Source of the DNA: Phoronis australis
Taxonomy: Eukaryota; Animalia; Phoronida
Assembly: GCA_002633005.1 (NCBI GenBank)
Contig: NMRA01001139.1
Location: forward strand, 1 to 50,126
Direction: 5' to 3'
DNA length: 50,126 bases
The notes below the pieces were generated by a model. The model did no database searches. It was given only the letters and a program-made list of their open reading frames with translations, and was not told the origin of the DNA. The translations under genes were made by a program, and so were the position numbers. Every line of letters starts with the position of its first letter. The stretch's first letter is position 1. Below, piece after piece: positions 3,101-33,490 of this stretch.

Positions 3101-4824
3101 GTTATTTGATCTCGATGCTCTGTTCTAAACGTCACTTATATACTGCGAGCTCAATAAATATTTCTCAAAACAATTAAAATGATAGCAATGACGCTTGCTT
3201 GATTTTAATCAGGCCACATTTTTATTGGTCAAACGTGTATCGAGTTTTTAAATTTTAGTGAAATGAAGTACAGCTTTGACGTGCCAGTGTACGTCTAATT
3301 GTTGATTTCCAGATTTTGTTCTATTAATAGATGGACTGGTGTACATGTGACGCATTGTACTACGGGGTGATTTTACATAAATAATGGAAATTTAAAGATT
3401 TAGTTAGATATTTTTCTAGTATTCAATTGTTTGACAGTGCAACATGTTATAATTTTTGTGGTGACTGCTATTGTTCTACCGCCCAATATTTTCCAATTTT
3501 ACACATTATCTATCAGTATTTCTTTCTATATTTTGTCCAAGTGACCTTGGGATCCAAATGGCAGTCGGCTACTAGAGACGCAACCTGAAATTGCGGCTTT
3601 TGTTCAAGTTGTTGAATTTTTGTATTCCTTGTTTGTTTGTCATCAAATCTGCCGTGATTGTAGCGTTGCATATTCTCCGAGACCATATATTTTTGACATT
3701 TCCCTCTTTACGCACCATTCTGAAACGAAATGTTGAATAAAGTAAATCGTCAGAAATTCCAAATTTGTAGATACAATATAGAAAGTTGTATAAATGCCGA
3801 AACACCATTTTGAACGTCTGATTGTAAAAGGGAAAAACGAGAGTCAAAAAAAACAAATTGCAACAACTTTTATTTGGTTAGTCACGCTCTCTTTAATTAG
3901 TTCCTTGCGATTGTTAAATGCCCCTTTAAATATATTCAAGAACTGACAAATGTATCAATTTATCGCGTGTACACGTGAAAACTGTCTGGAAAAGCGCTCT
4001 TTTTAAAAGCAACGCTTGGCCTGTCCAGACTGCTGCCACGTCGTCTCAAGAATAGCAGAACAATTTTGTGCTTGCGTCGAAATGGGAGACAAATGATTGA
4101 TTGGATTTCTGAACAGCAATCTTGACAAGAAGAATGGTTTTGGTGAAATGTGTTTCAACGTGCGTTTAATTTGTAGAGAATTCTATATTCTTTTCGTGAA
4201 CGTTTTGCCTGCTTGGATTTTGTTGGATGCCATTTACAAGTTGAAATGTGTTTAGTTCCGTGTGCCGGTGTTCCTGACCAGTAACAGACCCTTTACCAAG
4301 GATTGCCCTGCATTTTTTTCATAAAAAACATCATACTTCAGTTGCGTTTTGATAATATCCTATGCCAATGTCCAATTTACCCTATATTGATTTTCTCTCT
4401 TCTTTCTATTTCTGTTTGTTCCTGACTGATTCGTTAGAAATTATTTTGGACCTCAGGAAAAAAGTGAAACTGGACTTTACAAATTATTTTGACCATGTTT
4501 TTCAATTCATGCCTCCAGCAGGGATTGGTTTGGGGTAGACCTAATAATTAAGGAAAATGAGACGACCATGTAAGCTTTACCCATATAATTGCAGTTTTCA
4601 TATACACTAACAATACTTTTGTCTTGAACTCTCGAAAAATTGATCTCTAAAAATGATAAATTTTTAAGTTTAAATATCAAGGTCACGTTAATGACAATAA
4701 CAGTGATAGCTTGTCTTAGCTACAACCAGTCGTAAGTCGGACTTTTATAAAAGTGTCCATAGTTTTAAAGAACATGTCATGTCTTTGCTCTGAGGATTAT
4801 TACTGACACAAACAATCCTTCTAC

Positions 4825-4890
4825 ATGAGCGACGTAACCTTGTTCTCTAAAAATGATGATCCATTCCAACGACAACTGGTATATTACGAG
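4825..4890 (+). CDS. Putative first coding exon (MSDVTLFSKNDDPFQRQLVYYE)
   Basis: First in-frame ATG after a TGA at 4804. Strong GAG|gtaagc donor, phase 0, matching the next exon. May be the second half of a degenerate ANK repeat. Confidence 0.5.
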
Positions 4891-7800
4891 GTAAGCAGAT
4901 GGTAGATTTAGTAATTTTGTGTGCAAATGTGTTATTTCAACGTTTTCTGTGGTGAGTAATTAAGATTCACGGTGAAGTTAATGATTGTGAAGTTTGCTGT
5001 AACTTGTTCATTGTTTCTGCAGGACGACACAGCACTGCACTGGGCAGCAGTGGAGGGACATACAGAGGTGGCGCGTGTTTTGTGTAAAGCAGGCGCTAAC
5101 GTCAACAAGCAAGGCGGGGTAATAGAAGCTACTTGAGACGATTTTATAATTAAGACAGTGTTACAAAGCTGTAGACTACCTGAAATTTAACTAAACATGT
5201 TAGTTGTAAAACACTTTCTATTTCTCATGATTTCGACATGTATTTTCAATCTGTGCCGGGTACATGCATCGTTAGAAACAGTGAGGTTTGAATTGTGTCA
5301 ACAATATATTTGGCGACTTAACGTTGATATTTTTCTATTCTTAATGGTAATCATCCATTCAACATTGCAACTTTATATTAAACAGGAAGCCGTTAAACCG
5401 GTGTATAAACACAACATGGAGGGGTCTCTGTGAATTTATGAAGGTGCTCAGTACTTTCTGACAGTAGACGTCTACACCATGTTCTGTTCTTACTTCAAGG
5501 TTTTAAAATCACCTGTAAAACTTGAGTGATCATTACAAGTATTGTAGCGTCTTAGAGGGGTCAGTAATGTTTCATTTATGTCACCTTACAAGTTCACTTT
5601 GCCCCGTGTATGTTAATTTGCTCTGAACGTTGATCGTCCATTCACACATCTCCATTATATATTACATAGTGGGGCCGGACACCGCTGCACTGTGCAGCAT
5701 GGGATGGTCATACACAGACAGTGAAGTGTCTTGTGGAACACAACGCTACAGTGGATGTCCGTGATCAGGTAATTAATGTGCGTGATCAGGTAACTAATGA
5801 CACACAGGTTGTTTGGTTGAACTAGTTGTTTACACAAGAGATGATTAAAACTGTTGAAGAACAAATTTTGTTGATATTTTTCAAACTTTTATGTCTTTAA
5901 ACAATGTCAAAATAAATGTCGTCTGCTTTCCAACAGAGAACTGCCAAAGCTGCATCCGAACATTTCAGTTGATCCATTATTGTTGTTTTATTTACCTATA
6001 TATATTCTACATTTCGTCAAACAATAGCTTCCTTCAGACGATCTGGATCGCCTCATTTAGTTTCAGAATTATTTTCTACGTTATTTTGATTGTCCAACAC
6101 TTTACAGCGCACAATTACTTGCTGTGTGTTACCGGCCTGTAACGAGACAGGGAACACTGAACACGCTCTGTTGTTTTGTTCTTAAATTTGACATTTCCAG
6201 TTTGAAATCATTGCAAGTATTGTTGTGTCTTAGAGAGGTCAGTAATGTGTCATTTATGTCACCTTACCTTGTGTATGTTAATTTGCTCTAAACGTTGATC
6301 GTCCATTCACACATCTCCATTATATATTACATAGAGGGACTGGACACCGCTGCACTGTGCAGCAGGGAGTGGTCATACACAGACAGTGAAGTGTCTTGTG
6401 GAACACAACGCTACAGTGGATGTCCATAATAAGGTAATTAATGACACACAGGTTGATGAACACACAATACGTGATAAGGCTGAATTATTGGGTGTTTTAA
6501 TTATATAATCACAAATTGTAATTTTGTTTGTAAAGGTTGAATTCACGGCACGTGTAGTGACGCGCACGTGACGTGACGTGCTCGCGACATTAAGTTATTA
6601 GAAACAGTTTTCACTTCACCTGGAGTTGTACATTGAGCAATTGTTCTTTACTTGCATTTCCATAGCACTCACTAAATGATCGTGGCTCTGTTGTAATATA
6701 TAACATCAAATTGTGATATTTAAAATCATCTTTTCAGTCGCGTGACTACAACAGATTAGCATTTAAGAAATCGCGCTCATTTTTGTCTGAGTTTAAATGT
6801 CAGGTGTAGTCGCCTCTGTTGAGTCACCCACTTCATACAGTAAGTATGCAACTGATGGCGAAGTTCTGAAAGGTATTAAGCGTGACTCCCTGTTGACGCA
6901 CCCACTTTGCTATGTATGATGCTGATCAGCATTCTATCAATTTTGTTCATTTACTGTAGGATGGAGACACACCCTTGCATCTTGCATCCCTGAGAGGACA
7001 TGCAGCAGTCGTGGAACTGCTGGTCCATAAAGGCAGCTGCGACGTAACTGTCGTAAACAAGGTATCTCAAGAGTGTTGTACTCCAAGTTTAGTTAATGCT
7101 GCAATAAATGTGTTTTAAATGAATATTGATTTCGAGGAATTGTTCACTCATAATAAATATCTCATTAAAACTGATCTACCTCTTTACTGGAGTTACATAA
7201 AGTCACTTCTTACATGCAAGTACCTGAATAAACTACATGTAAACTATAGAAAAAACAAAGCACTGCGAAACTAATTCACGCAAGGTGATCTTTTTGATCC
7301 ATTCTAGATTTCGGATCTGTTTATAAGTTCGTTTACATACTTCGGGGGGCCTACCCCCTGGCTGCCGTAAAAGCATAAGTGCGAGGAAATATTGAGTTCA
7401 TCGATTAACAACGGTAATTGTTGTGCAGCTAAGGGGGCTGTTAGACCCGATTGGAAGTGTCTGGTTCAGATGACCTTCGTGAACATTTTCCCATTTTTAT
7501 TTTTTTTGTCCGCTAGTTTTGAATAGAAACCTGCAGAAATTCGAGCCTTCCTGTCTCTCAGCCTGGGTACGCGCGTACTTCAACGTGCATTGCACGAATG
7601 CCCGCGAGAAAATGTTACCCCCCTTGTGATATCCTAGATCTGCCACTGGTTTGATATGTGTGTATATGTAGATGAACAAGGATATATATTTCTGGATGTT
7701 GGTGAATTCAGTTGCACATGTAGGTAACGCAGTGCCGTGTTTTCGACTTTCTTTTTTACTTGGCTCAAAATATCGTGTGGTACTTAGTTTCGTTCACATC

Positions 7801-10800: not shown

Positions 10801-13800
10801 AAACTTTACTTATCCGTTACACAATGGAAGACGTTTAGGTGCATTCAATTTTGAAATGGAGTTTCAAATGAAAATTACTAGAAAGGTGAACATCGCAAAA
10901 CAGAAACAGTTTAAAGAAGAAATGATTACTGCTTATTTTTAAAAAAGTGTTCACAAGATTGTGTTTCGTGACCCCCAATCGATAATTTCCTTATTTTCGA
11001 AATCCTTTGTTTTAGAGCACTTTACCTTGGAAAGCACTTTTACCTCGGAGGGTAAAATTCTGGCATTCTATATTATCTGTTACTGAGGCTTCAAAGTCTA
11101 TATACTCTTACGTACTTATGGGCCGTGTTAAGAGTTTAAATCAAAGTCAGTTTGAGATGCCACCTTGCGTTTAAAAATACTGTGTCAAATTTTACACCGT
11201 TCTTGCATGAAGTGCGAAGGTAGATGTATATCAGTAATGTGAGATAAATTGCTGGCGAGTTATTTTTGTCCGACACCTTGTGAGTCTGAGGTATGTACTT
11301 GTAAGTGTTGAAATTTTGTGGTGTACGAATGATAGTCATGTGCTTATGAACAAGTGGTTGGCAATTTTTAAATCTTAAACGTTGTGGATCCGCTTTGCGT
11401 GTTGGTTTCACGAGCATTCACAAACAGCAGTATATGAAAGTTCACGAAACTGAACAATTAAACACACACCCCTAGCTTTACCGACGAAATTTTCACAGCT
11501 CACCGACGTGATTCATTTCATGAGCGTTTAGTCGTGTTTTGTGAGTGCAAGTTTGAGTGCCCTTACCTAAGTTAATACATGTAAGTTACCTTTGTTCTGA
11601 AGTATCTCAGCCATATTTTTCGGCGAACCTGAACATTGTGCACAATGTGCTATGAATTATGAATTGTCCTAGTGGTAGTAACAATCACAATGACTGGATA
11701 CCAAAACACTCAGATTTGTTTCCAAAATGCTTTTGCACGTTAATCAGCTGCAAATTTGTCGAGTCCACTTTACACTGATCTGACCGACGAAGAGGAAATA
11801 CTGCGAGAACGACGGTGTAAACCGGCGACGTCAGCAGCAACATAGCGGCTGCAAGTGAAATACGAAATTATTGCAACACAGTGATGATAAGAACTAACCT
11901 GAATCGTTTCATTTTGATTATTGATATTCATTACTATTATTCTATGATTTTGTTGATCACCTTATATACCAGTTCACTTTCAAAATTTGACTGACGTGTG
12001 CTGCATCAGCCATTTCCTTTTCCGTTCAGAAATCGGAGATCCTTTGATGATGAATATATTTTTGCGGAATGAGTAAAAAATACACACTCACCGTTTCTTT
12101 TCGATTGGGTTTGAATTTTGAAAATTTGCCAAGACAGCTTCTCAGTCCTCCTGCCATCGACATGAACGCGAGCCATCTGATTTTAAAACATGGTGCTGTT
12201 GAAAAGGTGATGGTGTCATGATGCTACCAACTTGCAGCGGTATAGATGCTGCTGCTTCGCTTACCACATATGCGCGTGATAAGGGCTTGTAGGCCTTAAT
12301 TGAACAGTATGCGTATTTTTAAAACATGAACAAAAAGGTTACGACACCTGCTGGTGTGTCTGATACTAACGAGAAACACTCACCACCACGTGATGCGTGC
12401 ACAAAGATTAAGGCAAAGCACTTTGATTATTAAACATTTTAAATATTTTGATATGCACTATCGTTTGTGTATGTTGTCTACACTTTACTTATGTAATAGT
12501 CAAGACACAATGTGAATGTTTAGATAAATTTGAAGAACTTGTAGCTAAAGGAAGTCAGTAAATTAAGTGAAGTTTCATTTCATTTTCCAATCTGTGATAT
12601 TGTCGTCTTCAATCTCTGGTTAACACGTGAACCTACCAGCCTCATTTGGCCATAGATGTAAGTGTCCAGTTCATAGTTGTGGTACATTTCACGTGCTTGA
12701 TACCGTATAGTGCATTTTATCACGTGTTAGGAAGTAAATTTGCATGACTTGTGTTACTTTTCAAGGTGGGTTTTAATGTTAGTAAGTCGTGTTTTTCAGG
12801 ACGGAAAAACAGCTTACGATGTCTGTGAAGACGAGAAAATAAAGACACTTCTTAAGGTATGCACTGGTGAAAAAACAGTCGATTTTGTTACGAAGTCCAT
12901 ATCGCTGTTCTTTTAAGATCTGTGTAATAACCCTCGTGTCAGTATTAGTAATCTGAAGGAATCGCATTAGCGTTGCCATTAATCTTCGAACCAGCAAAAG
13001 CAACAACTTCGTTACATTGAGGTGTCTCAAACCAAAAGATGACGTAGGGGGTATGTACGCGTATAATAAAAGCGTCACGCTCAAGAGCTCTCGGTGTTCA
13101 ATGTACATGCATGTAAGTAGAGTGTAGCACACTGTGGAGATTGCTCACACGATAGTCACTTGCGTTACTGATATTTAGCGCAAGAGAAAAAATCATTCAA
13201 TATTGCATAATATTAACGCTGCATTTCTTCTATTCAGCTGGTTTAATACTATCATATAAGACTTTTCACTCTAATGACTTAAATCTTGTGCAGTATTGTT
13301 TACAGCTAGGATTCTATTTCAGTCGTAACTAAAACACCGAAATTACAGCACACGCCAAGGTAAACCACACAACACCGTATCCGTGACATGACGGTCAATT
13401 CCGTTTGCATTTATTTCACTCTAGGCAATGTCATCCGTGATGAAATGACGCCCCATAATGGCTGTAGTAACGCACTAGCCCAAAATCTAGTGCTACTGAA
13501 AACGTTGACCAAATTTCCAATCTACACTGTACAGTGCACTTAGCGGCATAATATCAACGACTTGATTATCGTCGTCCTTTATTGTGCAATGCAATTTTAT
13601 ATGGTTTTTCATGCCTCAGTGACCGACAGTCGTGCATATTTTACTATCCCTTTCAATCACTCGAAGTTTCGTGTTTGCTATAGTTTTAGCGCCCAAGTAT
13701 ACGTCCGACGCCTGGTGTTAAAACTCAGCAGACGTTGAAAAATCACTATCTCTATGAAACCTGGCAACAAATTCCAAAAATGTGCTTTAAGGAGCATAAG

Positions 13801-16800
13801 TCTAAATGCCCTCACATCATGTTTGGTCCGTGGCCATTGGCTGCACAGATTACGACACACGAAAATATCTACATTTACTGCTATACACCAAAGAGCCCTA
13901 TTTCAGATTCGGTGTCTAGATATTCTGTGAAATTTTTATCGCTCTGTACACACTTGGGCTTGAATGAAGCCTCTGTATTCTCGAAAACGATTCAAGGACG
14001 AAGATCAAAACCTCAAATGAAGGACTTCGGAAGAAATTAACATTAAAGTTTTTGCGTACGCTGACTGCTAAGTAGATTTCTTGTACTGGTGTTTCGCATC
14101 AGTTGTCTAAATTTTGCTAAAATTAGCGTTATCGCCTATTGGATTTTATCCCCAGAATGTAAGAGGGACAATTTTTCAAAACTAAAATATGCCGTTTATT
14201 AATTGTTCTACCTATGTGTACAATTAATCGATATTACAAACGTCTGAGATATGCCAAGTTAGCACTTTTTCCTGACTTTCTGGTGCAGTAAATCTTATTG
14301 TTTTTTGCAATATCATGTCAACGAATGGCTCAAATACTCAAAGTGAACATTTTGCTGCCATACTTAGTTGACATGTACAGTTCTCCTGAAATAATCTTAA
14401 ATGTGATGTGTGTGTCCAAAAGTCCGTGTTTTGGCATTTTATTAAGAATCAGATGGAATTTTCCAGCAAACTTCTTTTAAACAAATGATTCGCTGCAATA
14501 CCCGACGAGAAGTTACAGTGCCTTGAAGCAGTTAACACTCAATATTTGCATACATTGGTTGTACGACGGTGGTGTTATGGAATGATTCGAGTCTTTTCAT
14601 TGATGGAAGCTGACTGTAAAGTTTCCAAGGCTTAGTACTTAGCAACTTGTTCTACATGTAAGTGTGTACTTACTATGCTTATATACTTAACTGCAATTTC
14701 CAGAGACGCATGAGACAAAAAACTCAAGAAAAAATATTTATTGAAAGATATGGTCGCAGTAAAGATCGCCCGCATGTGGCTGAAGGAGCGAATAAGGGTT
14801 CGTCCTACCTAAGTTTAGGACCGTTTGCTGGTGAGTCGGAAAAGCAGAAAGGTGGCACTGAAACTTTTGCCGATTTGAGACTAGAAAAAGAATACACTAG
14901 TCTCCCACAAGGTGAAAATGTGAACAGTATTCTAGGTCGGCAAAACTTCAGAAACCTTGCACAAAGTGTATTGGAAGTTATTCCAATCTCAAATTTCCAT
15001 CAATTCCACCCCAAAGCCACAGTTTGCTTGCTACTACTACAAACTAAGAGACGATGCATTCAGACTGCATCAGGACATTGACAAATGTAGGATATCTTAA
15101 AGGCGCCCATCACTTTGTCTTTTAACACCATTGTAGTGGCGCATAGCAATGATTGAGGGAAAAGATTTTTTTTAATTTTTTTTTTTAAATTTTGTTTTTT
15201 GCCTTTGAAAACAAGCAGTATATTCAGCCTTCGACGGCTCTGCGGTGGCCAGGTTGCTTTGTGCTTTCCTCCTAAACCTAACTATACCAGGGCCCAGTCT
15301 CTAATCTTTTTACTCGAAATGGAGCTCGAAATTAGGTTTTGCATTTTCTACCCTACTTTTGGGCGAACTCAAGATAAGTGTCTATTATTCTATGCTCGAG
15401 TACACAATAACTTACGTAGATAATTTATTGCCCTTAGTTCACAGTTTGTTAACCCAATATTAAAGCAATAAGTTCGAGTTTGAACTCGAAATTTGGTGTT
15501 TTTACTCGAGTTTGTAGCACGAATATAAGTGTCCTCAAGGGCAAACTTGAACTAGAAACTCCTATGCATAAACTATAATGTATTCGAGCACAGTCTGACA
15601 ACCAATTATCTTAAGTTCGCACAAAAGGAGCAGAGAAATTGCCAAAAATAGTTTCGAGTTCGTTTCGAGTACAACGATTAGAGACCGGGCACAGATTGCA
15701 GAAGTCAGGTGAGAATTGGTTGTCGATCAGCCAGACTTAGCAAATCCTGCAGTTTTAAAGGATTTCTGAATTTCCTGTTCAATTTCTACTCTCCACTTTC
15801 AATCAATTAAGTTTTCAAGAAAGCCACTGTCCCTCAAGTGAGCGGTTTTCTTAAGGCCAATAGCTGGCATTCTTTCACTAAGAACATAGTATACACAAAA
15901 AGTCAAGCAATTAGGTCACCCGCATCCTTCCCATGTAGGACAAAACATAAAATTCTCAGCCAACACTCTCAAATCAAATGGCAAAATGTTCCCCAATGGT
16001 GAGAGTTAGATAAAAGTTACTGGAGAAACGACGAAATAAGGAGTTGAAATCTGTGCCGCCCATCACCTGACTTGGCATGGTGCATAAGTTTCTTTGGAAA
16101 AAACGGAGAGCTCAAACAGACGTGGCCCATGTCCTGTAATGGTTATCCCGAACAACTTCAGCTGGACAAAGCTCGCCTGATATTGTAGTACCCAACTGCA
16201 CTCGGTGATTTTTCCTTCATTTCCGTGGAAAAATTCAAATTTCGCAATATTCGTGTGGGCTGTGGTATTTGGACTGAGTGAAAACAATTGACCAGTGTAT
16301 CCTCAATGATTCATACTACGGGGACCAAATGACTTGCCAAATTTGCGAAAGAAACAAAACTGACCACTGTTTGCAATCAAAGGGTGTTTTTCTGAAGTAC
16401 AATTGAGGAGGGTCTTTGAAGCCATCTTATGTGCATGCAAGTTACCACCAAAATATTGCAAGTGCTCATGACAGTTATCCCAATATGAGAATGGTAGAAT
16501 TATGATGCCTCTCCCTATGGCCACCGGGATGTGAACCCCAAATTATCATAAAAGTCATGACCGTACCCAAAACCAAAGGGAGTTTGACGTGTGTGAACAT
16601 ACCCCCACCAGGATGTGGGATCCAACTTAACAAGCTGAATGTAATTCATATTACATGTACATTCATAATTGGTATTGCAACCGCCTATGTAATAATATTG
16701 TTCTAAAAATTTCTTTTCGTTGTAAATGAACGGATGTCAGCTGCCATTTCAGTACGGAGAAAGCTTGTCACCAAATAGCAAACCTACGGTTTTAGTGTTG

Positions 16801-19800
16801 TTATCCAATCAAATTAGAAAGAAAGCGCATGCGATGGAAGGAATTAATTTCTGTGGGCACGCGAGTTATTTCAACCCAGTAGGCACACAGCAATCCGAAA
16901 TCCAGCAGTCAGATGGGTTGCCCTGAAACGCCCAAAATGTCAACTTTGCAGACATCTAACGTGAATCAGTCCGAGGTGTACAATGGCAACAAAAACCACT
17001 TGATAGACACTTTTAAAACGAGTTGGGTAGAGCGAAACAGTTGTTTTTTTTTTCAACTTATTCAAAGCGAGTCTAATGCAAATAAAGCGAATAGTCTCAA
17101 GAGAGATTTACTAGATCAAATTTTTGCGAACAAAGATCAAACAAAAATGAGCATGACTAATTCTCGGTTTACTCAATTACGTGCACTGAGTTCAACGAGA
17201 TGTAAAAAATTCGTGACAAGCCGATGTCTGTTTTGATGGTATTCCTTGTCACCTGATTATTGCTTTTGTATCTATTGAAAACGATTAGCATTTTTGCCAT
17301 TTTGTCCTGATGAGAACTATGTAAGCAAACAGAAACTTCAACTGGATGTTTGCACCGCCGGTGTAACTTGCACTTCTGCTCTCAACTGTTCTGAATTTAG
17401 ATTTCTGGCTTACAACAATAGCTGACTTTCGAAGTAGTTGCGCCCTGTTGAAATCATTCTTATCTGGAAAAGTACATATGCAATGTCTGTGGTACCATTA
17501 AAATCCATCTGTCCTCTCATGTCTGACCCACCATTGGAGCAATTGAATTTGTTCGTGCATGGCAGTTTTTGATTAATACTCCACTGTCATGTCACGGATT
17601 TATACCTAATCTGAAACGATACCGTGTTAACACAAAAAATGGAAAATCTTTATCACATAACTTTAACTGTTTTCATCTGATATCTGATAAAAGGTATTTC
17701 TATCATTAAAGTTAGACTTTGTTTTGTGTAATGTAAAATTGGCCACAAAAATTTGAATTCGGCCACATACTGTATATATTTGTAGCCTGTTGTGGTTAAA
17801 AGAACTTCAGGGGTGGCGAGAAGTTCTAAGGCTGAACTCTTAAATTTTCCATCTTAGGAATTCGTAAGATCGTCCTTGCACAACACATGGGTAAAATTAT
17901 CACCTTTTTGATAAATCGTGTCTCTTTACTAAGCAATACCTGTAGTTTAATCAATCTTGAATACCAATTTTTGTTCTTTACACTTCCCATTAGTTTCAAG
18001 TAACGATAGCTTCACAGGTGTTTAGTAACAGTGTCAATGCTGTTTTGAGTGATAGTCAATTCTTTACAACATTTTCAGCATCAAAAGATCGTTTTAAATT
18101 CTTCAAAAGTGTGTTCAAAACTTTCTTAATATGTTTTGTGTAGAGTAAATTTTAAATTATGTTCGAAAACCAGGTATGGCACAAGCTAAACAGAGCAATA
18201 AACTTGAATAACTGGCTGCGTTGAAACACTCTCACTACTACACCACAAATACATGTATCATGATTCTAAAATGTTTATTAGTATCACATATTGGCGACCA
18301 GACTCCGCAGAATGCCTCAAACCTGAAGGAAAATCAAAATGCGTCGTCTCTTCAAAGAGGTCTGGAGCGCGAAAAACATACACTATAATGTAATAGTCAC
18401 AGTGGTTTTCTGTTACTGGCACAAAATTCAACCTGAGTACAAAGTATGTCTTACGATTTGTTCGCAAAGATTTTAAAATTCGGTTCGTGTCACAGCATTT
18501 TTCATATATTTTTAAATTTTAAGAACTACACAAACGACCTGTCAATTGTTTGTCACTTCGTGCATTTTTCTCCCACAATCCAAAGCGCGTCTTTCGTTTG
18601 GTACAGCGTATGGCCAGAGGTAAACGTTGAAAAATTCATTTACATGTACATGTACGTGAGAAACTCACCTTTGACCTTTGGTCTAAACAAAACGTGACGA
18701 CTTAAGCAGCAGCCTGTCCGATTAAGAGGCAATTGATATTAGTATTTGCTGTTTAAAATAAGTTATAAAATGTATCATATACAGTATATTCTAAAACGCA
18801 CTAGGGATTATGTTTGGAAAATTGCTTGCTTCACTGGCTTGCCTCATTATATAGTGTCGACCTTGAACTTGGAGTACGATCACACACAATAATCTGACGT
18901 TAATAGCCATCTTGCCAATTGGGTGTTTGCCGAATGACTGTGAACGCATGCTCGCATTGATCTACAAGTTGCAGAAAATTGGAAACTTGGTGGCGACAGA
19001 GTTTTTCCTTTGTGCATATATGAATTTCAAAAATTCCGAATTTTGTGATTTTTCTGGAAATTCCCTCACATGTTAAAAGTTGCCAGAGGGCGCTTTCGTG
19101 AGAAATTTCTGAAAGACAATTCATATTACTCACCTTTTAATAGGGATGTTTACCCAATTTTATGAAGAATAATTAGGAATCGTAAACAATTGAAATTGTC
19201 ATAAGCAGTTACTGCGGTTGTTGGATCCGCTTAAAAGTCGTCACTTGATGCCTTGCTGATGGGAACTACATGTACTGACATGCAATGACGAAGGCACGAT
19301 GGGGGGGTGGCTCCATTTCCTCAGTGCAAAGCATGCGTGCATCCAGGAAGGGGGAGCTCTAACGAGCCCATCCCCTCCCATTTGGCAAAGTGCGATATTA
19401 ACCCAAATGTTAGGTCGACGTATTCTATTGAGGCTGCAGACGATTACCACGCGTACAGAGGAATCAACAAGAATCTCGGTTAACTAAGAAAATTGGATAA
19501 TGAGTCCTCGACACAACCCCATGAACAAACTTACATGATCGATCTAAAGAGTAACCTGATAAAACTAATCAATTTCAGATGCCTTATCGTTTAGTTTGAG
19601 CGCAGAGTACGATGTGGACCGTGTTCAACTGAACTACCGGTCTAGAGAGACTGAAACTCCCCAGCGATCGTTTGTGGAAGTAAAGCCGAACGGTGGGTAT
19701 ATTTATCGCTAGTGCAACAGCTTCTCTCACACACTTCCCCAAATTACATATTAAATCGACTGCTTTATCTACGTGTAGAGACGATAAGCCAATGCCCTCA

Positions 19801-22800
19801 TTACGACACCATGTTCTATATTTCCTAGAAACACTTTTCATACATGTGTAGTTGATATCCAGTTTCATTACACGCCAACATAGTGGGCAACCTAACATCG
19901 TTTTCTTTCCATTTTGGTATTGTTTTTGATAATTCACATGCAAAATTACGAATTAAACATGAAAGGGAGATTGATGGAACATTGAAGTAAATGATAATCT
20001 ATACTAAAACGCTATTAAATAAGAAAACAGAACTTATTTGAATATAGTTTCAATGCTGCCTAAAAGACGTCACTTATGTCCCTTTAGCAACCATTGATGG
20101 AGCATCTGGCGGAGATTTTCGGTGGAAAGAGGTGACACTTAAAGTACCGCCGAATGCAATATCTGGACAAATAAAAATTGAAATAGTAGACCAGCCGCTA
20201 TTAGTGCAAGCAGTACATGACAACACGAAAGGCAGAGCTCACCTCCATCGTCAGGGAATACGGGTGACTCATGGCACGGATGAAAATGTAGTGTTATCAA
20301 CACCAGTCGAAGTGCGAGCGTCTGTTAGATCAATGTTGGAAGAAGCGAGGGATCAACGACTACAGGGCCAAGACTTTGGTATACTGCGTGAAAAAAATGG
20401 GGAAGTAACTGATTTCAGTAAAGAGAGTGGGGTCAGGCGATATGGGGAGGAAGTAGTCTTCTACACCAAAACGTTTGCATATTTTCATATTATCTGGGGG
20501 TTAGCTAAACATTTTGTCGAAACCATCAAAAATACAATTATTACGTCGTACAGTTGTCGGATATGCCCGTACATAAAAGGAGGACAAAATGGCTTCATAG
20601 TAAAGTTATATTGTCATGGCGTAGACGTCGTATGTTCTTCTGATTTGAAACACGAATGTTTAGCCAAAGAGGTGCGCTTGAGAGATAAGACCGAACTGTG
20701 GTTTGAAGTGAAGTGCAGGTGTATTAAGACGAATGACACGAAAACAATTCGCTCTAGAGAGTTTGAACTTCACAGAGATTGTTGCGAAAAAACGGGCATT
20801 AGATTTTCGGAGGCTCAACCTGATATTAAACCACTTGTAGCAGACGAGGTTCAACTGGAGGTGAAGGAGTTAACCTGTAAGAAATCGCTGCTATGGGAAT
20901 CTGTGAAGGTTCATGTAAGTGACCAAACAGGTGTTGTGTATAGTGTATTGATAGTGTGTACCATAATTTCACACGTCTTATTGGTCGAAGCTATTTGATT
21001 TGGCAATGGCAGACAGAGAAATGCAATGTGACTTTTCAACGAATCATGCTCCCTGACCCAAATTCACTCTGTCTGATCACCTCGGTACTTAAGTGGTAGG
21101 AATCCCCTGCTGTAACCCATGACTTAGCAGGCCTCGCGCAGAATCAACCATTTGAGTTTCTGTAGAGCTCCCACGCCGCACAGCGGCTTTTGTGGAAGAT
21201 TGCTTACACTGAGATGCGTTCATCAGGCTAAGTGAGTTTTACAAGCGTTGGATTATCGGGTCGTGTCTAAGACTGCGACCCCATCTAGAACGATGCAACA
21301 TAGCTCTCAGTCTTGCATGCCAGTGTGAATAAGACGTTTTTGTAATGTTAATGTCTACTCTGCGTGCAGAGTGGTGCGCGGTTGTGCAAGCATCACTTCT
21401 GAAAGGGAAATCCATTTGGAATTTGGGGTGAAAACACTTGTACTTGTGGAGGCTTTTTATATTTAGAAGTATTAAGAGAAAATCCTCTTTCTTTAGTATA
21501 ATATAACATATTAGTTGTAGACCCATTGATTAATAGGAGATATCTCCATACATAATTTAGCAGAGCAAACATTGAGAATTGGCTTCAAACTAAAAAAAAA
21601 TTACCAAATTTCGCCCCACCCTCATCTGCTTTCACCCATGCTACAAATTATTCCCTATTTCCTCCTCTTTTGCATCCTGGTCATCGCCAATCACATACTG
21701 TACTTTGTCGTGAACGAAAGTTCAGGAAGCAAACAAGACATAAATCCATTCATACTAAATTTGAGATTTTAACTGAGGCTTGTTGTTCTGTTTGACTAAT
21801 TTACTGAGAACAGACATTGCTGTATTAGCAGCTATTATTATGTGTGCATTTTTCTTTGGTTTTAGGGGCTGTCGAACTCCGCAGCAAAATTTTCGACGAG
21901 TCCAACAAGTGGTATAGCTGGTAAGAAAAAGTGAATGTTTGCTTAGGGTAAAATTGATTCTCCTTCTTGGCGTAGACCGGTAATGCAAGATGTACATGTA
22001 TTCTAGCGCGACAAAATCAAGATGTCGCGAGACTTGACAAAACAAAGCGAGAAAAAATGAGGGTTTTGCGAGTATTATTGGAAGTTTACTTACTAGCATG
22101 ACGTAGCAAATTTCCCTTTGCTAAATTACTTCTATGTCAATATTGCAAAATGTAAATACCCAAGCAGCCACGATATTGAAAGGCCAAAAAACAAATGGGA
22201 GTATCAGTGTGTTGTGTACTCAGGATAGGACAGATAAATTCTCTAATAGTCCGAAATCCTTCAACACCCATTCATTTAGAAAAAGACAAGTTCTACTTAG
22301 GATTAAATCAAATGAAAAAAAATCCCAAACAGCGTTGCTGCAAAAATTGTGGTGGAATCCCATTAGACACCCTAGATCCACACTGTTCTACTGACTGCCT
22401 TGATGCTAACCAGGATAAGGTAATTTTGTGTCCCACTAGATGAGGTTTGTAAATTCATTTGTGTCTGTTTTCGGGAACAAAAGACAATAGCATCCAACAT
22501 TTGAAAAACCAGTTACATGTAGGTCATTAGTCGAATGCCCCTGGAGTCTAGTGAAACCACATTTGGGATCATTTTCAGGGTGGGCGATATTTTGGCTTTG
22601 TTTTTGATATCAGAAACCGAATCCGTTTAATTTTATGAGTCTAAAAAGTTTTAGGTGCTTTTAAAAACTGGACAAAATCCGTGAACATTGCCTTTAAACT
22701 GGCCTTAATTCTGCAAATCTCACAGGGGACAGAGCATATTTAAAATCAATGAAAGTCGTTGTAAGTATAGTATGATGCTGCAAATGATATGCAAATGTAA

Positions 22801-25800
22801 GGAAAATTTCTATACAGATGAGCGTCACTTAGCAGTGAAATTACGAACTATTGCAAACATTTTAATATTTTTTGAAGTTGGAAATGAGTGTGCTTAAATA
22901 AAAAGCTGCCTAGAAAACATTTTTGTTTCACTAACTACATTTCGAAAGCCAATTCCAGTACACTGTACTTTAGAATCACCACATGCTGTGTCAAAATTCT
23001 ACATTCGATATTTTCATAGTCCAATGACTCCTGCGAGTATAAAAAGCGGAAAATTGCTGGCAAGACGACAGGCAGATTTTTAATTTGAAATGTCGCCAGA
23101 GAATTGATAAACCTAAAATTAAACTTAGACTTGAAAATTTCAAACTTTATGCCAATTAAGACTGTTGCCAAATTTCTCAAAATTCATCATTTACAGTATT
23201 TGTCGCCTTTTAACCCCTATATTGTACACGGGTCCATTTTCAGACATTGTTCAAAAACAAAAATTCTGTCGCCAGTTTTGAAATTTGTGTAACAGTTTTC
23301 AGAACTGTCACAAGGAAGGCTCCAAACTTGCTCCACAGGCACACTTTGCTAAAATTTATGACGTAACCATTCACAAAACCTTGTTGTATCCGTAATATAG
23401 ACTGGATTTTTAAAATGCTATCAGTGTTGACCTACTTTTGAAGTTTGTGTGGAGGTAAAGTAAACAATGTTCAAATTTTATGAGGCACACGTTTAAGTCA
23501 ACTTTCAACCATATTGATCATGAACCATTTTAAGTTCTTCCCAGAAGTTATACAAAAAGAAAGACTGTCATTTTGAAGGATGCATTTTTACCTATCGTGA
23601 CATACTGAATGTTCTAAATATAAAGCATACCATTTGAGACGTGGGCTATATTAGAAATGGAGTGAATATTTGGGCTTTCCGTCCATTTTCAACAAATTTT
23701 GGCGAACATTTTCCAGCCTTTTTGGAGATCACCAAAGGAAAGTTTTAATTATCATTCAACTGTTTCCGATCGTCTTTATGGTCAAAAAGCTGAATTGTAA
23801 GGAGTTTCACATGCCATTACAATGCCTACGCATGAAGTTTAAACCCGAAATATCATTGGTGTTTTTGAACTAAATAAAGTTGATTTTGCATCGTCTTTGC
23901 TATATGGTTCATTTTTTGATGGAAAAGGTGCCAGTCAAAATACTGCACCACCACCTCGACTCCACAAGAACATATCAAAGTTAATTAAGTTGTTTTTTGG
24001 TCTAACACTATAAGAGTTCATATTCACGTCTCTAACTATTTGTGCATAAAGTACATGTCACATCAGAGATGCGTGGTTGAAATAATTGGCCTTAAGGTTG
24101 ATATCCCATTGGGGCCTCAAATAGACTAGTGAGGCGATGTTGACGGAGGCATTTTGATCGATTACCTGCGTTTGATAGGAGCTTCTGATCAGTGGACTAG
24201 TACGTCATCACAGAATTCAAAAAATTCCCTTCTTGAGTAGTAGTCAGAACAAGATTTTTTCTAGAGTGCAATTGCCTGGTCGGACATGATTTAGTGGGGC
24301 GACATCTACAGTCTGTGTATTCATTCACACCTCAAAAGCTCATTCTTGTCTTACAGCGGCACGTTAAATGAGGCTCAAGTACTTGTTAAAAATACTTAGG
24401 GAATCACTTTTGCAACAGATTCTATGGTAGGTGTGGCTAGACAAAATAAACACACGCTATTTTCTTTAATCACTACTAAGCACGACAAGTTTTGCACCAG
24501 ATACTGATGTACTCCTGCACTTAGGAAGTGCGGTCTCTCACTTCAGTTACAATGCATTTTCATGGACAGTTGTAATATTTTCCAAATCAGCAGCATGATG
24601 TAGTTTCATGAAAAATATCTGTAATTAACTTTAATGCTCCCCTGTGTCTATGTTAGGTCTATGAATTTTATTTTTAACAACGTGCTCAATGTAAAAACAG
24701 CCGAGTGACACAGGTGTTACATGTTAAGACCGAGAAGCCTAGCATGACAGTCATCCGCATGTGTCTCGTCAACACAAGTTCTGTCTTACTGCAACATTAA
24801 TATTAATCGCTGAAACACCTACGTAAGATTAAAACCCTTTGAAATTCTAACTGACCATTATGACTCATCTGAAATGAGGTCAGGTACAACAATAATGTAG
24901 GCATTTAGTGCAGTCAGCGCCCACCGTAGCAGTAGTGGATGATGAGAACTAGTTCGGGATTATCCGTCAGACACTCAAACAAAGGCTCTTACTTGGGACT
25001 GGAGGGGGTGTTTAAGTATTCTGTGACCGGGATATATCAAAATTCTTGCAACCGAGATGTTGGGTCAAAGAGCACAATATGGTTTCAAATGCTGTGTAAC
25101 CTTATATTTCGTTACTAGAAACCACGAATGCACGAAAACTTCACTTGAAGCTACTGAGAACAGTTTCGCTAGGTCTCAAGAATGAGGAGTTTAAAAGACT
25201 GAGGGCAGACTGTTACTGGCTTTAGTAAGTACAGAAACTTAATTTTCACTGTTTCTCAAATACGCTTGTGTGTCGGGTCACATGTCTTCAATAGCTTCAA
25301 CGACTTTCATTGGTTGTGAAAACTTTTGGACAACTACCTGTAATTACCTGCAAAGAAGAAGCAGTTGAGATTATCTTGGGTACAATGTTGCCTTTCGTTG
25401 CACTATGATATGTTAGTTCTCGTTGATAGAAATAAACATCTTCAATTACAAACGATGTTGACTGGACATGATTAATTTTGTGTCGTGATATCAGTTAATT
25501 ACCTGTGATTCTTTTGTGGAGTCAATACTTTTCTGTGCACTACATGTAGGTCAGTCATTTTTAGTAAAATTCTAGCGACACACACTATTCATGACTAAAC
25601 TTCTTCATTTGCATAGTTAAAGAGTACTGGAAATTTACGGGAGTAGGCTCACGGTCGGATGATACACATTTAACACACGTCTAATGAAACCAAATATATA
25701 TGTACGTGTGCATGTACGTTCAGACGTTCTTTGAAAGTGTGTCGTTTCATAGCGCAAGTTTAAAGCAAAATTAGGATCAATTATTCACTCGGGAACGACG

Positions 25801-28800: not shown

Positions 28801-31411
28801 ATTCCTTAACTTGAACTTGTAATCAGAAAGTCTCACTTTAAAGAGGTCTACATGTATATACAAAGATGAATTGTATAGTCACATTTTAGTAACACCTATA
28901 CTTACAAAAATATATTGATCACACTGTAACCAAACTCATAAATACCGGGCTTTTCTGTAGAAAAACCAACCGGAGTGTATCCGGAAAACGAAAATTTTCA
29001 TGCGTTCTCGTAACCCCATATAAACGCCCAAATAAATTTCGAACACACATCTAATTCATTATTAATTATTTACTGACATAATAATAGCATTTTATCAATG
29101 AGTTAAAGTCTCAGTCGTGACTTATATCTGCTAACGGAATTTTTTTTCGAAAATGCTTTTATTTTACTTGAGCGGATCCAGCCTAAAATATGGGAGGTCC
29201 GAATTTTTGAATTTGCGTACCATTTACTGAAAAAATAGCGGGGACTAAACTAAGAAACGGGGTACTACTGTACGTTGAGACCCGTAAATCGTGCATTCAC
29301 GCCGAATTCCTGTAGACTTTTGTCTCGTTTTCTCTGACTTTTTGTTTCTTTGAGGCGGATCTTTTTGCCCACTTCACCAACTGGGGGTCTTGTTCGAGCC
29401 CCGAGTACCCATTTTGTGCGGGCATGTTTTATTTTATTTAATTTTTACAGCCGAGCAGTGGTGGATGAAATCGAAACACCTCGCGATCTCCTCGATCAGC
29501 TTGATGTGCAGGGAATCATTGGAATTGGAAATTACAGCGAGTTAATGGAACTACTGGAGAACCATAGATTGATCAAACTTAAAAGAGAGGTGGAGAAACT
29601 GGCTAATGAAATGGAAAGAATTCTAGGTAATATGGATCACCTTCATACACCCATTTTTTGACAATATTGTAGTTGTCAACCAAGTGACAGTTGTCCTTGT
29701 GCAGGCGTATGTTGCATAGGCAAGAGAACGCATGGTCGTGTAAAACTTTATTTATCATTGCTACTTACAAGCAAATCCCATGGTCAAAGTAGCTTCCATA
29801 ACGATAATCTTTTGCTTTCAGAATTTAATCCTAGAGTTGCTACCACGGGATTCAGTTTATCTCCAACTGTAAAACAGTTGGAGCGTTGCTTCGCCTTTTA
29901 AGCCTAATCCAGTGCTGCAGGCGTGTGCCCACCCAATGCCAATTCATTCCCAAGTTATGAAAGCCTCATATGCTGATTAGATATGTGGGCATGCGCATTC
30001 CACAATTTAACCCTGATACGCTAGGTATCACGGGCTTCAGTTTGGCTCTAACTGTAAAGCAGTTGCAGCTCTGCTATCCCTTTTAAGCCTAACCCTGAGC
30101 TAGAAATCTTCATTTTCAAGTTACGAAAGCCTCTTATGCTGCTTACATGTACAGTAGATGTGTGAGCATGCGCAGTACACAGTTTACATTATTCTCTTCA
30201 CTTTGATGGTTCACACTGCATGTCCCTGAGTTTAAATTTTGAAGATATTTTGAGATGTTTGAAGATAGTTTGACGACACTTGCAATACCGGAAGCCAGGC
30301 TCAGGAGGATGACATTTTATCAGTTTCTAAAGGTGTGTTTTAATGGATTGTGGTAGTAAAACTGAGTGCAATTTAGCACCTGAAACTGACGATGACTGTA
30401 TTGGGAAACGGATTTCAAGGACCCCGATCACGGCGATGTTTTGAACGAGCTGCCGCGAGATCACATTGCATTGTTTGATGCATACTATGATTAATAGGTT
30501 ACACCCGTCATGCACAATACTGCGCTTCCCAAACACGATGAAAATACATCATAGCTGTATAGCTTCATGACTTTTTGACTTTTTCATAGACCAAGTGTTC
30601 TCGGCTATAGCACATGAACATTTAGAATATACGGTGACACACATGACTTTAGATTCCGGCACACTGTGCGTAAAATGTCATCTTCCAATTTTTGGATACT
30701 TAATCTTCTTAAAAGAGACAGGAGTTGCGAAGATACTGAAAAATCGGTTGATATTAGCAAAGTGATGCCAAATGGCTATCAAGCGTGGCGATTCATGAAA
30801 ACGATCGCTTGAAATAGGGTTGCAAAATTTGTGTCAAAACTATTTCACAACAGTGCACGGGTATCCGACAGGGAATCAGAAAAGGAGTGTAAATCAAGTC
30901 AGTTTATTTATTGTCCATCAAAGTAAAACAAGGGAAAACATTAGCCGCAGGTTAATACATGTATATCGACAATTAAATACTTCAGTTACTCAATAAATAG
31001 ATACATGTATATGTACATGTATACCGACAAATAAATGCATCAGTTACTCAATAAATAGATACATGTATATGTACATGTATACCGACAAATAAATGCATCA
31101 ATTACTCAATAACTATGTACATGTATATGGAATTAGAACAAAGAATAAAACACTATATATAAATTAACAATTAGCATAGGCGAGATGATGTCTGTGTAAG
31201 AAATTCACAGAGTATCGAGCGTTTCGCCTTTTGATTATTCATTAATGGGGTGATTAACTTATTTCAAACACCAGATTTATCTCACTTACCCATTGTAGCA
31301 CTTAGAGCTACGTCTTTTATATAACGGGAGTCAAATTTATTTTGCGATCAAACACTTTGACACTACAGAACAGTTTCTTCTTTTTCAGGTACACCAGGGG
31401 AACAGGTATGA
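4825..31411 (+). CDS. Spliced gene model, about 610 aa: ANK x4 + cap - ZU5 - UPA-like - DED. Exons: 4825-4890, 5023-5118, 5670-5768, 6335-6433, 6960-7061, 12800-12856, 14704-14830, 20088-20914, 21866-21920, 25119-25224, 29451-29626, 31389-31411
   Basis: All introns are GT..AG, mostly with pyrimidine-rich acceptors. Phases chain consistently (0,0,0,0,0,0,1,0,1,2,1). Exons total 1833 nt with no internal stop. Domain motifs were recognised by eye. First and last exons are least certain, and extra symmetric exons cannot be excluded. Confidence 0.8.
5023..5118 (+). CDS. Ankyrin repeat exon 1 (DDTALHWAAVEGHTEVARVLCKAGANVNKQGG)
   Basis: ttgtttctgcag acceptor, gtaata donor. Matches the ANK consensus TALHxAAxxGHxEVxxxLxxxGAxVN. 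Confidence 0.92.
5670..5768 (+). CDS. Ankyrin repeat exon 2 (WGRTPLHCAAWDGHTQTVKCLVEHNATVDVRDQ)
   Basis: 99-nt phase 0/0 exon, tacatag acceptor, CAG|gtaatt donor, TPLH..AA..GH motif. Confidence 0.93.
6335..6433 (+). CDS. Ankyrin repeat exon 3 (RDWTPLHCAAGSGHTQTVKCLVEHNATVDVHNK), duplicate of exon 2
   Basis: 99-nt phase 0/0 exon, 90/99 nt identical to 5670-5768, same acceptor context, AAG|gtaatt donor. Confidence 0.93.
6960..7061 (+). CDS. Ankyrin repeat exon 4 (DGDTPLHLASLRGHAAVVELLVHKGSCDVTVVNK)
   Basis: 102-nt phase 0/0 exon, ttactgtag acceptor, AAG|gtatct donor, GDTPLHLA...GH..VVELL consensus. Confidence 0.93.
10505..10800 (+). repeat. Dispersed repeat copy A (homologous to about 33215-33490)
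   Basis: Shared colinear blocks: tagggacaatc, ggaaactcaaagNttggta, tatcggtRctc, gaaaaNttggaat, attgcaRagtctggtggattt, atgaactg...aaactgaaaa. Confidence 0.8.
12800..12856 (+). CDS. C-terminal capping ankyrin half-repeat exon (DGKTAYDVCEDEKIKTLLK)
   Basis: gtttttcag acceptor, AAG|gtatgc donor. GKTAxD...I..LL is typical of a terminal ANK repeat. Confidence 0.85.
14704..14830 (+). CDS. Linker exon leading into ZU5 (RRMRQKTQEKIFIERYGRSKDRPHVAEGANKGSSYLSLGPFA)
   Basis: tttccag acceptor, G|gtgagt donor. Phase 0 to 1 bridges the ANK cap exon and the ZU5 exon exactly. Lies within ORF 14662..15081. Confidence 0.7.
15291..15691. mobile_element. PIF/Harbinger-type MITE
   Basis: About 40-bp imperfect TIRs (GGCCCAGTCTCTAATCTTTTTACTCGAAA / TTTCGAGTACAACGATTAGAGACCGGGCA) flanked by a CAG target-site duplication (15288-90, 15692-94). 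No coding capacity. Confidence 0.85.
20088..20914 (+). CDS. Large exon encoding a ZU5 domain and a UPA-like beta-rich region
   Basis: ccctttag acceptor (phase 1), CAT|gtaagt donor. Starts TIDGASGGDFRWKEVTLKVPPNAI (ZU5 pattern DxxGG...VxLxIPPxAI), then LSTPVEV and FYTKTFAYFHI. Corresponds to ORF 20132..20998, the longest ungapped ORF in the track. Confidence 0.8.
21866..21920 (+). CDS. Short Ser/Thr-rich linker exon (GLSNSAAKFSTSPTSGIA)
   Basis: Long T-rich acceptor tttttctttggttttag, G|gtaaga donor. Phase 0 to 1 fits both neighbours. Confidence 0.7.
25119..25224 (+). CDS. Death effector domain, first half (ETTNARKLHLKLLRTVSLGLKNEEFKRLRADCYWL)
   Basis: ttactag acceptor, TA|gtaagt donor. Matches DED helix 1-2 pattern LLxxIsxxLxxEExxxLkxxC. 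Phase 1 to 2. Confidence 0.8.
26079..27219 (+). mobile_element. Helentron-associated non-autonomous element (HINE/DINE-1-like)
   Basis: T-run start, short inverted sub-termini TGCGCC...GGCGCA, (TCCG)n microsatellite at about 26126, degenerate internal repeats of about 150 bp (CCTAGTGG core), 3' hairpin CAACGC-tcc-GCGTTG. Confidence 0.7.
27368..28267 (-). mobile_element. Solo LTR (900 bp) in the intron splitting the DED
   Basis: Termini TGTCAG...CTGACA, perfect 5-bp TSD ATGTA (27363-67, 28268-72). Minus-strand TATA-like (about 27945) and AATAAA (about 27460). Confidence 0.8.
29451..29626 (+). CDS. Death effector domain, second half (YRAVVDEIETPRDLLDQLDVQGIIGIGNYSELMELLENHRLIKLKREVEKLANEMERIL)
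   Basis: atttttacag acceptor; phase 2 completes codon TA+C; G|gtaata donor. Matches DED pattern DLxxxLxxxxxIxxxNxxxLxxLL. Lies within ORF 29350..29661. Confidence 0.85.
29824..30186. repeat. Diverged tandem duplication, two units of about 185 bp
   Basis: Repeated blocks cacgggMttcagttt...aactgtaaaRcagttg...ccttttaagcctaa...caagttaYgaaagcctc...gcatgcgca. Confidence 0.85.
30956..31128. repeat. Minisatellite, 58-bp unit, about 3 copies
   Basis: Unit tacatgtataccgacaaataaatgcatcagttactcaataaatagatacatgtatatg; accgacaaat recurs at 31023 and 31081. Confidence 0.95.
31389..31411 (+). CDS. Putative terminal coding exon (GTPGEQV*)
   Basis: Strong tttcttctttttcag acceptor, phase 1, TGA at 31409-31411, AATAAA near 31667. 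CAG|gtatga could alternatively be a donor. Confidence 0.55.
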
Positions 31412-33214: not shown

Positions 33215-33490
33215 AATGATAGGGACAATCCTACATGTACACGTAATGCATCGGATAAACATTTGGTCGGAAACTCAAAGTTTGGTAACAGAAATTCCCA
33301 ATTTCAAAGCATTTATATTTGACAACAAAAATCAGCTATCGGTACTCTGTTGGGAAAAGTTGGAATAACGCCGGTTCCTCAGCCGAAGCACGCCGCCTGA
33401 CCAACGCCTGATGTTTGATATTGCAAAGTCTGGTGGATTTCAAATAATTGGCAGACATGAACTGGCATAAACTGAAAAATTGTGTGTGAA
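33215..33490 (+). repeat. Dispersed repeat copy B (homologous to about 10505-10800)
   Basis: See copy A. Same orientation, diverged. Confidence 0.8.

Follow-up and report, generated by a model that had tools for sequence, protein, structure and literature searches.

Gene Model and Domain Prediction

The window, by which we mean the whole 50,126-nt stretch of phoronid DNA that was analysed, carries on its + strand a 13-exon gene model encoding 648 aa with no internal stop. A short first exon is followed by four ankyrin exons, a cap, two linkers, an 827-nt exon, a short linker, two DED exons and a short last exon. The model was compared with eight sequencing runs, namely four DNA runs of one sample (X1–X4), a contig set presumed to be RNA (X5) and three raw RNA runs labelled as the same species (X6–X8), which belong to one study and of which 18–19 % each was read. 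X5–X8 were aligned to 4700–24600 at 88 % likeness, while X1 and X6–X8 were aligned to 5660–5775 at 80 %. The exon reads are strand-specific and agree with a + strand transcript.

4825..4890, + strand: predicted first coding exon, uncertain (ATG, 22 codons, open frame, GTAAG donor)
5023..5118, + strand: ankyrin repeat 1 exon, 96 nt, phase 0, not of the hypervariable type (Ank 37.9 bits; joint 5112 to 5671 in 7 reads and 1 contig)
5670..5768, + strand: hypervariable ankyrin module copy 1, 99 nt, phase 0 (Ank 39.6 bits; RNA reads and 67 DNA contigs)
6335..6433, + strand: hypervariable ankyrin module copy 2, 99 nt, phase 0 (Ank 35.9 bits; joints 5769 to 6340 in 18 reads and 1 contig, and 6431 to 6958, GT..AG, in 13 reads and 2 contigs)
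6960..7061, + strand: ankyrin repeat 4 exon, 102 nt, phase 0 (Ank 40.2 bits; joint 7061 to 12803 in 17 reads and 1 contig)
12800..12856, + strand: predicted C-capping half repeat exon, 57 nt, phase 0 (joint from 7061)
14704..14830, + strand: predicted linker exon (AG/GT ends and phase fit; X5 contig running from 14826 to 19586 with 11 letters between)
19579..19692, + strand: linker exon (joint 19691 to 20087, GT..AG, in 7 reads and 1 contig)
20088..20914, + strand: predicted ZU5-UPA-like exon, 827 nt (ESM Atlas hits; stranded RNA depth)
21866..21920, + strand: predicted short linker exon (X5 contig joint 20914 to 21866; phase fit)
25119..25224, + strand: predicted exon for the first third of the DED (one of 16 candidates; phase 1 to 2, GTAAGT donor, length)
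29451..29626, + strand: predicted DED exon (Pfam DED, E=1.1e-4)
31389..31411, + strand: predicted last coding exon with stop (phase fit)

All four ankyrin exons score above the Pfam Ank (PF00023) cut-off of 21.1 bits. Joints in reads or contigs support the model from 5023 to 12800, from 14826 to 19586, from 19691 to 20087 and from 20914 to 21866, and a 2153-nt X5 contig links sequence ending at 12845 to 20168–20914 with 51 other letters in 747. The RNA alignment ended at 24600, and the first exon and the joint between 12856 and 14704 are drawn from sequence features. No joint to the first exon is found among those listed, and 150 X8 reads have a different sequence before 5028.

For the 827-nt exon, the top matches in the ESM Atlas are ZU5/UPA (score 0.96, 191 of 256 features), with a recognition value of 2103 that lies below the guide value of 2300. 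Nine of the ten best Atlas family matches agree on ZU5/UPA, all from one language-model search, and the nearest Atlas clusters are mostly from echinoderms or sponges. The same exon has no Pfam match, phmmer against 1.84 billion representatives returned 0 hits, and PDB sequence searches gave weak unrelated matches or none. Word-index searches of longer proteins with the ZU5-like exon, the module with its read-through and the DED exon likewise found no match, and a single-sequence AlphaFold model of the 827-nt exon reached a pLDDT of 32.7. The exon at 29451..29626 matches the Pfam DED profile over positions 34–81 of 82 (E=1.1e-4) with 22.8 bits, below the cut-off of 35.9. The exon at 25119..25224 has no Pfam match on its own, and its length and phase suit the missing first third of the DED. 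Both DED exons are joined to the ankyrin exons by splice phase only.

The combination of a ZU5-UPA segment with a death fold is the layout of PIDD, UNC5 and CARD8, in which an HF/S or SF/S motif at the end of the ZU5 domain directs self-cleavage (PMC3210808). TFA stands in the 827-nt exon where PIDD has HF/S, being the only match and at the position expected by eye, so that self-cleavage is likely absent. No Walker A motif occurs in the 648-aa model, no NACHT or NB-ARC Pfam family was found in the 19 segments scanned, and no signal or membrane segment is evident by eye in the gene model. From its sequence, the gene is predicted to encode four ankyrin repeats with a cap, a ZU5-UPA-like region and a DED, and would as such be PIDD-like rather than an NLR.

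Several repeated elements lie within and around the gene. A highly covered repeat at 15286–15694, with reads on both strands and loose ends at both borders, is probably a short mobile element in an intron. In each of the three RNA runs, a second repeated element at 9303–9867 shows a joint that returns to a point 565 bases earlier, corresponding to a tandem or circular form. Diverged copies (75–78 %) of an interspersed repeat at 10522–10790 and 33244–33481 flank most of the 3' part of the gene. Further downstream, minus-strand open frames and fragments at 45400–46450 resemble a decayed transposon-type gene, including a 152-aa minus-strand frame at 45743–46198 with no Pfam match, and short tandem arrays with periods of 58 and 64 occupy 30956–31129 and 48330–48457.

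Two Near-Identical Ankyrin Exons

The second and third ankyrin exons (5670–5768 and 6335–6433) are both 99 nt long, have AG/GT ends and are in phase 0. Realignment bore out the original prediction that they differ by nine nucleotides in eight codons with no silent change, and that the adjoining intron has one mismatch in 64 bases. The changed codons are 1, 2, 3, 11, 12, 31, 32 and 33 (W>R, G>D, R>W, W>G, D>S, R>H, D>N and Q>K), whereas 25 of the 33 residues (76 %) are identical. If repeat positions are numbered as exon codon plus two, which places TPLH at 6–9, these changes fall in order on positions 3, 4, 5, 13, 14, 33, 1 and 2. Taken by itself, the absence of silent changes does not reach significance (P ~0.10; 22.5 silent versus 76.5 replacement sites). 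CpG transitions account for two of the nine changes, and CpG hypermutation was on this count rejected as the main cause.

The positional clustering, in contrast, is significant. The original prediction had placed the changes on six ligand-contacting residues, positions 2, 3, 5, 13, 14 and 33, which are reportedly the ones randomised in the original DARPin library. All six lie within the eight changed codons of 33 (P=2.5e-5). We further took the contact positions from a published ankyrin library that randomises positions 2, 3, 5, 10, 13 and 14 (PMC3308923), five of which are changed in the exon pair (P=1.3e-3). In the six corresponding codons 6 of 18 nucleotides differ, compared to 6 of 128 aligned intron nucleotides (Fisher P=9e-4), while the remaining 27 codons differ at 3 of 81 nucleotides and are at the intron baseline (P=1.0).

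The likeness of the two exons extends into the upstream intron and defines a shared cassette of about 250 bp, 5529–5778 versus 6207–6443, with 88.8 % identity counting gaps.

5529..5669, + strand: intron part of cassette 1, common to cassette 2 (6 mismatches in 128 aligned nt plus 13 gap nt versus 6207–6334)
6207..6334, + strand: intron part of cassette 2 (alignment to cassette 1)
5755..5799, + strand: 21-nt tandem duplication over the copy-1 splice donor (TRF period 21, 2.1 copies)

Beyond the cassettes this likeness is lost, as three intron stretches around and between them are no more alike than shuffled sequence, and the spacer at 5812–6206 aligns to either flank with scores of 42–53, within the shuffle range. 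After a fresh tandem duplication, or if two alleles had been assembled end to end, the spacer would be expected to resemble one of the flanks, so that neither fits and the pair is not a plain recent tandem duplication. The description of the exons as recently duplicated would therefore be better replaced by homogenisation of a short cassette within a family, and we infer older or separately inserted exons that were kept alike by exchange of the short cassette.

Two features next to the modules deserve mention. The duplication at 5755–5799 creates a second in-frame GT donor after 5789, which if used would add seven residues to the hairpin loop. In the intron past copy 2, 6510–6539 resembles, with 3 mismatches in 30, a sequence that immediately precedes the module in a DNA contig of X1. 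Other arrays may accordingly have far shorter introns, and the window may have lost a further module at this point or had one interrupted.

An Expressed Multi-Copy Module Family

The original prediction also held that there are only two copies. This is true of the 50,126-nt window, in which no third module was found, but not of the organism, where many copies appear in RNA reads and DNA contigs. The three RNA runs placed 1056, 457 and 402 reads on the 116 bases of 5660–5775, and the X1 DNA run placed 67 contigs there, a figure that is not a copy count. The four DNA runs share 0.28–0.34 of the sampled window words and, with at most 0.34 shared, their sample is probably not the individual from which the window derives. 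Among the listed 40 of 79 variants, 36 recur in the X1 DNA contigs.

Reads in which the end of the exon re-enters its start were frequent, with 294, 126 and 86 such back-joints of the 1056, 457 and 402 reads, among those listed. The letters at these module–module joints vary between reads, from which we conclude that modules are spliced to other modules. With both copies in the reference, the back-joint 5769 to 5671 was seen in 74 reads versus 18 reads joining copy 1 to copy 2; these back-joints represent other module pairs, the 151-nt reads giving neither array length nor locus. Read depth was 201, 186 and 621 at 5699 compared to 30, 15 and 30 at 7001 in the three RNA runs, although the likeness filter may miss end exons of paralogues that have diverged. 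The exon pair is consequently part of a multi-copy, DNA-encoded and expressed family of 99-nt phase-0 ankyrin cassettes.

At 5714–5726 many reads depart from the module and continue with another second half, as seen from loose ends in X6, X7 and X1, possibly reflecting a second module subfamily or chimeric repeats that share the first helix. The intron at 5119–5669 is heavily covered by stranded RNA, with a depth of up to 256 in X8, and also by an X5 contig of 577 nt that differs at 27 letters, which may represent intron retention or an unspliced transcript of a related copy.

Variation Concentrates on the Predicted Binding Face

We analysed the variation on 5660–5775 from the listed 40 of 79 variants, the permutation test treating all others as zero. 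Diversity summed over the sites of each codon was highest at positions 14, 5, 13, 3 and 10 in each RNA run (0.94–1.56), followed by positions 1 and 2 (0.63–0.77, with 0.75–0.77 for position 1 in all RNA runs). Outside the binding set, position 18 reached 0.74–0.75 in X6 and X7 and position 19 reached 0.40 in X8, and positions 33 and 4 had no variant among the listed 40 of 79. Only 2, 3 and 3 of 1,107,568 possible six-codon sets equalled or exceeded the published library set in the three RNA runs. Since reads are clipped at the exon ends, with an X8 depth of 140–260 at codon 1 versus about 830 inside, it is worth mentioning that the three interior library codons are also the top three of 27 interior codons in each RNA run (chance 1 in 2925). 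Position 10 is identical in both window copies, yet hot in the reads, and thereby provides an independent match that was invisible to the original prediction.

Within the six library codons, mean diversity at codon positions one and two was 0.47–0.51 in the three RNA runs, compared to 0.03–0.05 at 17 framework four-fold silent sites in the listed 40 of 79 variants. Giving every unlisted silent site the largest listed value raises the latter to an upper bound of 0.14–0.23, and the ratio of binding-face to silent diversity thus ranges from 2.3–3.4 as a conservative bound to 11–19 in the listed variants. These values are a proxy and not a codon-model dN/dS, as diversity from pooled reads is weighted by expression, mixes alleles with paralogues and stems from lineages that are not independent. 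Third positions of hot codons are low where changes are silent or near-silent (0.16, 0 and 0 at 5678), and the four-fold sites 5696 and 5699, which adjoin the hot site 5700, had no variant among those listed. Such quiet silent neighbours indicate that the signal tracks amino acids and not a DNA hotspot. All 12 kinds of base change are present, and as DNA contigs from another sample contain 36 of the 40 variants, the variants are DNA-encoded. An even spread of substitutions over further copies had been put forward as an outcome that would speak against the original prediction; as approximated with reads, variation is uneven and binding-face diversity exceeds silent diversity in all three RNA runs.

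Proposed Mechanism and Alternatives

Our favoured explanation, which we consider fairly probable as a whole, is a cassette family under concerted evolution with diversifying selection on the binding face, situated in a predicted ANK-ZU5-UPA-DED cytosolic immune sensor. The evolutionary part, comprising homogenised cassettes and selected contact residues, is held with high confidence, while the role as a non-self sensor is suggested by architecture and analogy. Of the two processes originally proposed for such a sensor, positive selection is retained, given that binding-face diversity exceeds silent diversity, whereas targeted diversification is considered improbable, as the variants are present in DNA and comprise all base changes.

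As each repeat occupies one phase-0 exon, gaining, losing or exchanging a cassette leaves the reading frame intact. The scaffold together with the flanking intron would be homogenised by conversion or unequal crossing-over among cassettes, and selection would keep the contact residues diverse while cassette exchange keeps the rest alike. Stacked between fixed end repeats, the variable modules may build a concave surface for binding, similar to that of a DARPin. Ligand binding could then free the DED from a hold exerted by ZU5-UPA, and the freed DED might recruit DED partners, such as FADD or caspase-8-like proteins, by which binding of a foreign ligand would likely signal cell death or inflammation. 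A bolder version, to which we give tentative credit at a level short of even, sees here a natural DARPin library, in which NTPase-free ANK-ZU5-UPA-DED receptors built from combinatorial 99-nt exon cassettes, each varied at the residues that protein engineers choose to randomise, would form a large intracellular repertoire wired to the DED.

The alternative that survives best, although we consider it unlikely, is that the same evolutionary pattern serves another job, be it allorecognition, gamete recognition or conflict with selfish elements, or that the modules mostly reside on other proteins. Fungal high-conservation repeats were indeed known first from allorecognition (PMC13449251). However, the predicted cytosolic death-fold architecture suits immune or cell-death signalling (PMC3210808, PMC8195603), and the model gives no evident sign, by eye, of secretion or membrane insertion.

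Ordinary ankyrin evolution, in which a young family has a purified scaffold and relaxed surface constraint with no positive selection, appears improbable. It would accommodate the P of about 0.10 for zero silent changes among nine, and the other 39 of 79 variants could hold more silent variation. Diversity under relaxed constraint is, however, capped at the silent level, and the binding face lies 2.3–3.4-fold above that level even by the conservative bound, which disfavours this explanation; moreover, the outer, non-binding surface is not similarly variable. Where the variable codons lie is weak evidence by itself, and the case depends on the comparison with silent sites.

We regard targeted or somatic diversification by editing, hypermutation, conversion with short donor tracts or somatic shuffling as slightly more improbable still. 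It could explain the very sharp hot codons and some double changes within one codon, such as the two-base change D>S, and somatic recombination has been hypothesised for brown-algal genes (PMC3341825). Against it, the 36 of 40 listed variants found in DNA contigs of a different sample, together with their recurrence across three RNA samples, exclude RNA editing as the main source. The base changes, furthermore, are of all 12 kinds with no A-only or C>T-only bias, CpG transitions are no more frequent in the exon pair than the two in nine given above, and the silent neighbours of hot sites are quiet.

Finally, that the window pair is an assembly artefact of alleles placed end to end, or that the back-joints stem from circular RNA or template switching, is very improbable even though no contig bridging both copies was seen and N gaps occur elsewhere in the assembly, because the spacer at 5812–6206 is unrelated to either flank, unlike in a duplicated haplotype, the joint letters vary, unlike in a circle of one exon, and the family-wide read variation stands even if the window pair is false.

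Comparison to Known Repeat-Based Receptors

Diversified by cassette exchange and by selection on the binding face, the phoronid family as proposed here most closely recalls receptors of fungi and brown algae. Fungal HIC NLRs, such as the Podospora ANK proteins Pa_3_8560 and Pa_2_8180 and the WD40 proteins HET-E/HNWD, likewise consist of near-identical repeats with few hypervariable positions (PMC4986451, PMC13449251). Their hypervariable sites also lie on the face formed by inner helix and beta-hairpin, their repeats are shuffled and a cell-death effector domain resides on the same protein; the Podospora ANK repeats are described as polymorphic in copy number, with sites under selection on their concave face (PMC4986451). 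In contrast, the phoronid model has no NACHT or NB-ARC motif, carries a predicted DED effector behind ZU5-UPA and comes from an animal host, with one repeat per exon, conserved intron flanks and only two variable modules in the window allele. The HIC class is defined by repeats spanning 100 aa or more at an identity of 85 % or higher (PMC4986451), whereas the two modules of the window allele comprise 66 aa at 76 % identity. A hypervariable concave face above neutral diversity, which is another mark of this class, is found here by the pooled-read proxy.

The Ectocarpus ROCO-LRR and NB-ARC-TPR genes similarly encode one repeat per equal-length phase-0 exon, with exon shuffling, a binding face under diversifying selection and an inferred immune role (PMC3341825). 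This exon arrangement recurs in the adjacent 99-nt phase-0 exons of the window, which are flanked by phase-0 exons of 96 and 102 nt. The phoronid model nevertheless has neither the LRR-ROCO nor the NB-ARC-TPR architecture, as its repeat is an ankyrin and not an LRR or TPR, there is no GTPase or NB-ARC, and the predicted output is a metazoan-type death fold. With no NTPase and the definition of 85 % over 100 aa not reached, the phoronid gene resembles the Podospora and Ectocarpus receptors in mode and is a member of neither class.

In its predicted domain order of repeat domain, ZU5-UPA and death-fold domain, the protein would match PIDD1, UNC5, the FIIND of CARD8/NLRP1 and ankyrins (PMC3210808). 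Compared to PIDD1 and its kin, the model has ANK in place of LRR, a single ZU5, a DED in place of DD or CARD and TFA in place of HF/S or SF/S. Hypervariable repeats are not known to be a feature of PIDD1, UNC5, CARD8, NLRP1 or ankyrin proteins. Designed ankyrin libraries likewise place interchangeable 33-residue modules between fixed end repeats, and their randomised set is the variable set 2, 3, 5, 10, 13 and 14 seen here (PMC3308923). The phoronid modules, in turn, are natural and genome-encoded putative binders that vary at position 1 as well.

Significance

It is an open question how large recognition repertoires are built in animals that lack antibodies. Sensors with conserved repeats and hypervariable sites have already been described in fungi, and exon-encoded ones in brown algae. 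High-conservation NLRs occur in animals too (PMC13449251), so that this mode of diversification is in principle not new to animals, and the lists of animal high-conservation ANK proteins in the supplements of PMC4986451 and PMC13449251 may bear on novelty. Expanded proteins combining death folds with ankyrin repeats are known from marine invertebrates, the exon-level pattern being absent from the available portion of that report (PMC8195603). A search of open-access literature listings found no description of an exon-encoded hypervariable ankyrin family or of an ANK-ZU5-DED family in animals. Nor did these listings yield a version built from ankyrin exon cassettes that has no NTPase and feeds into a predicted DED. 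As the modules are short, countable and expressible like DARPins, the size of the repertoire, the mechanism of shuffling and the ligands can be measured. If our interpretation is true, natural selection and library design have converged on the same ankyrin positions.
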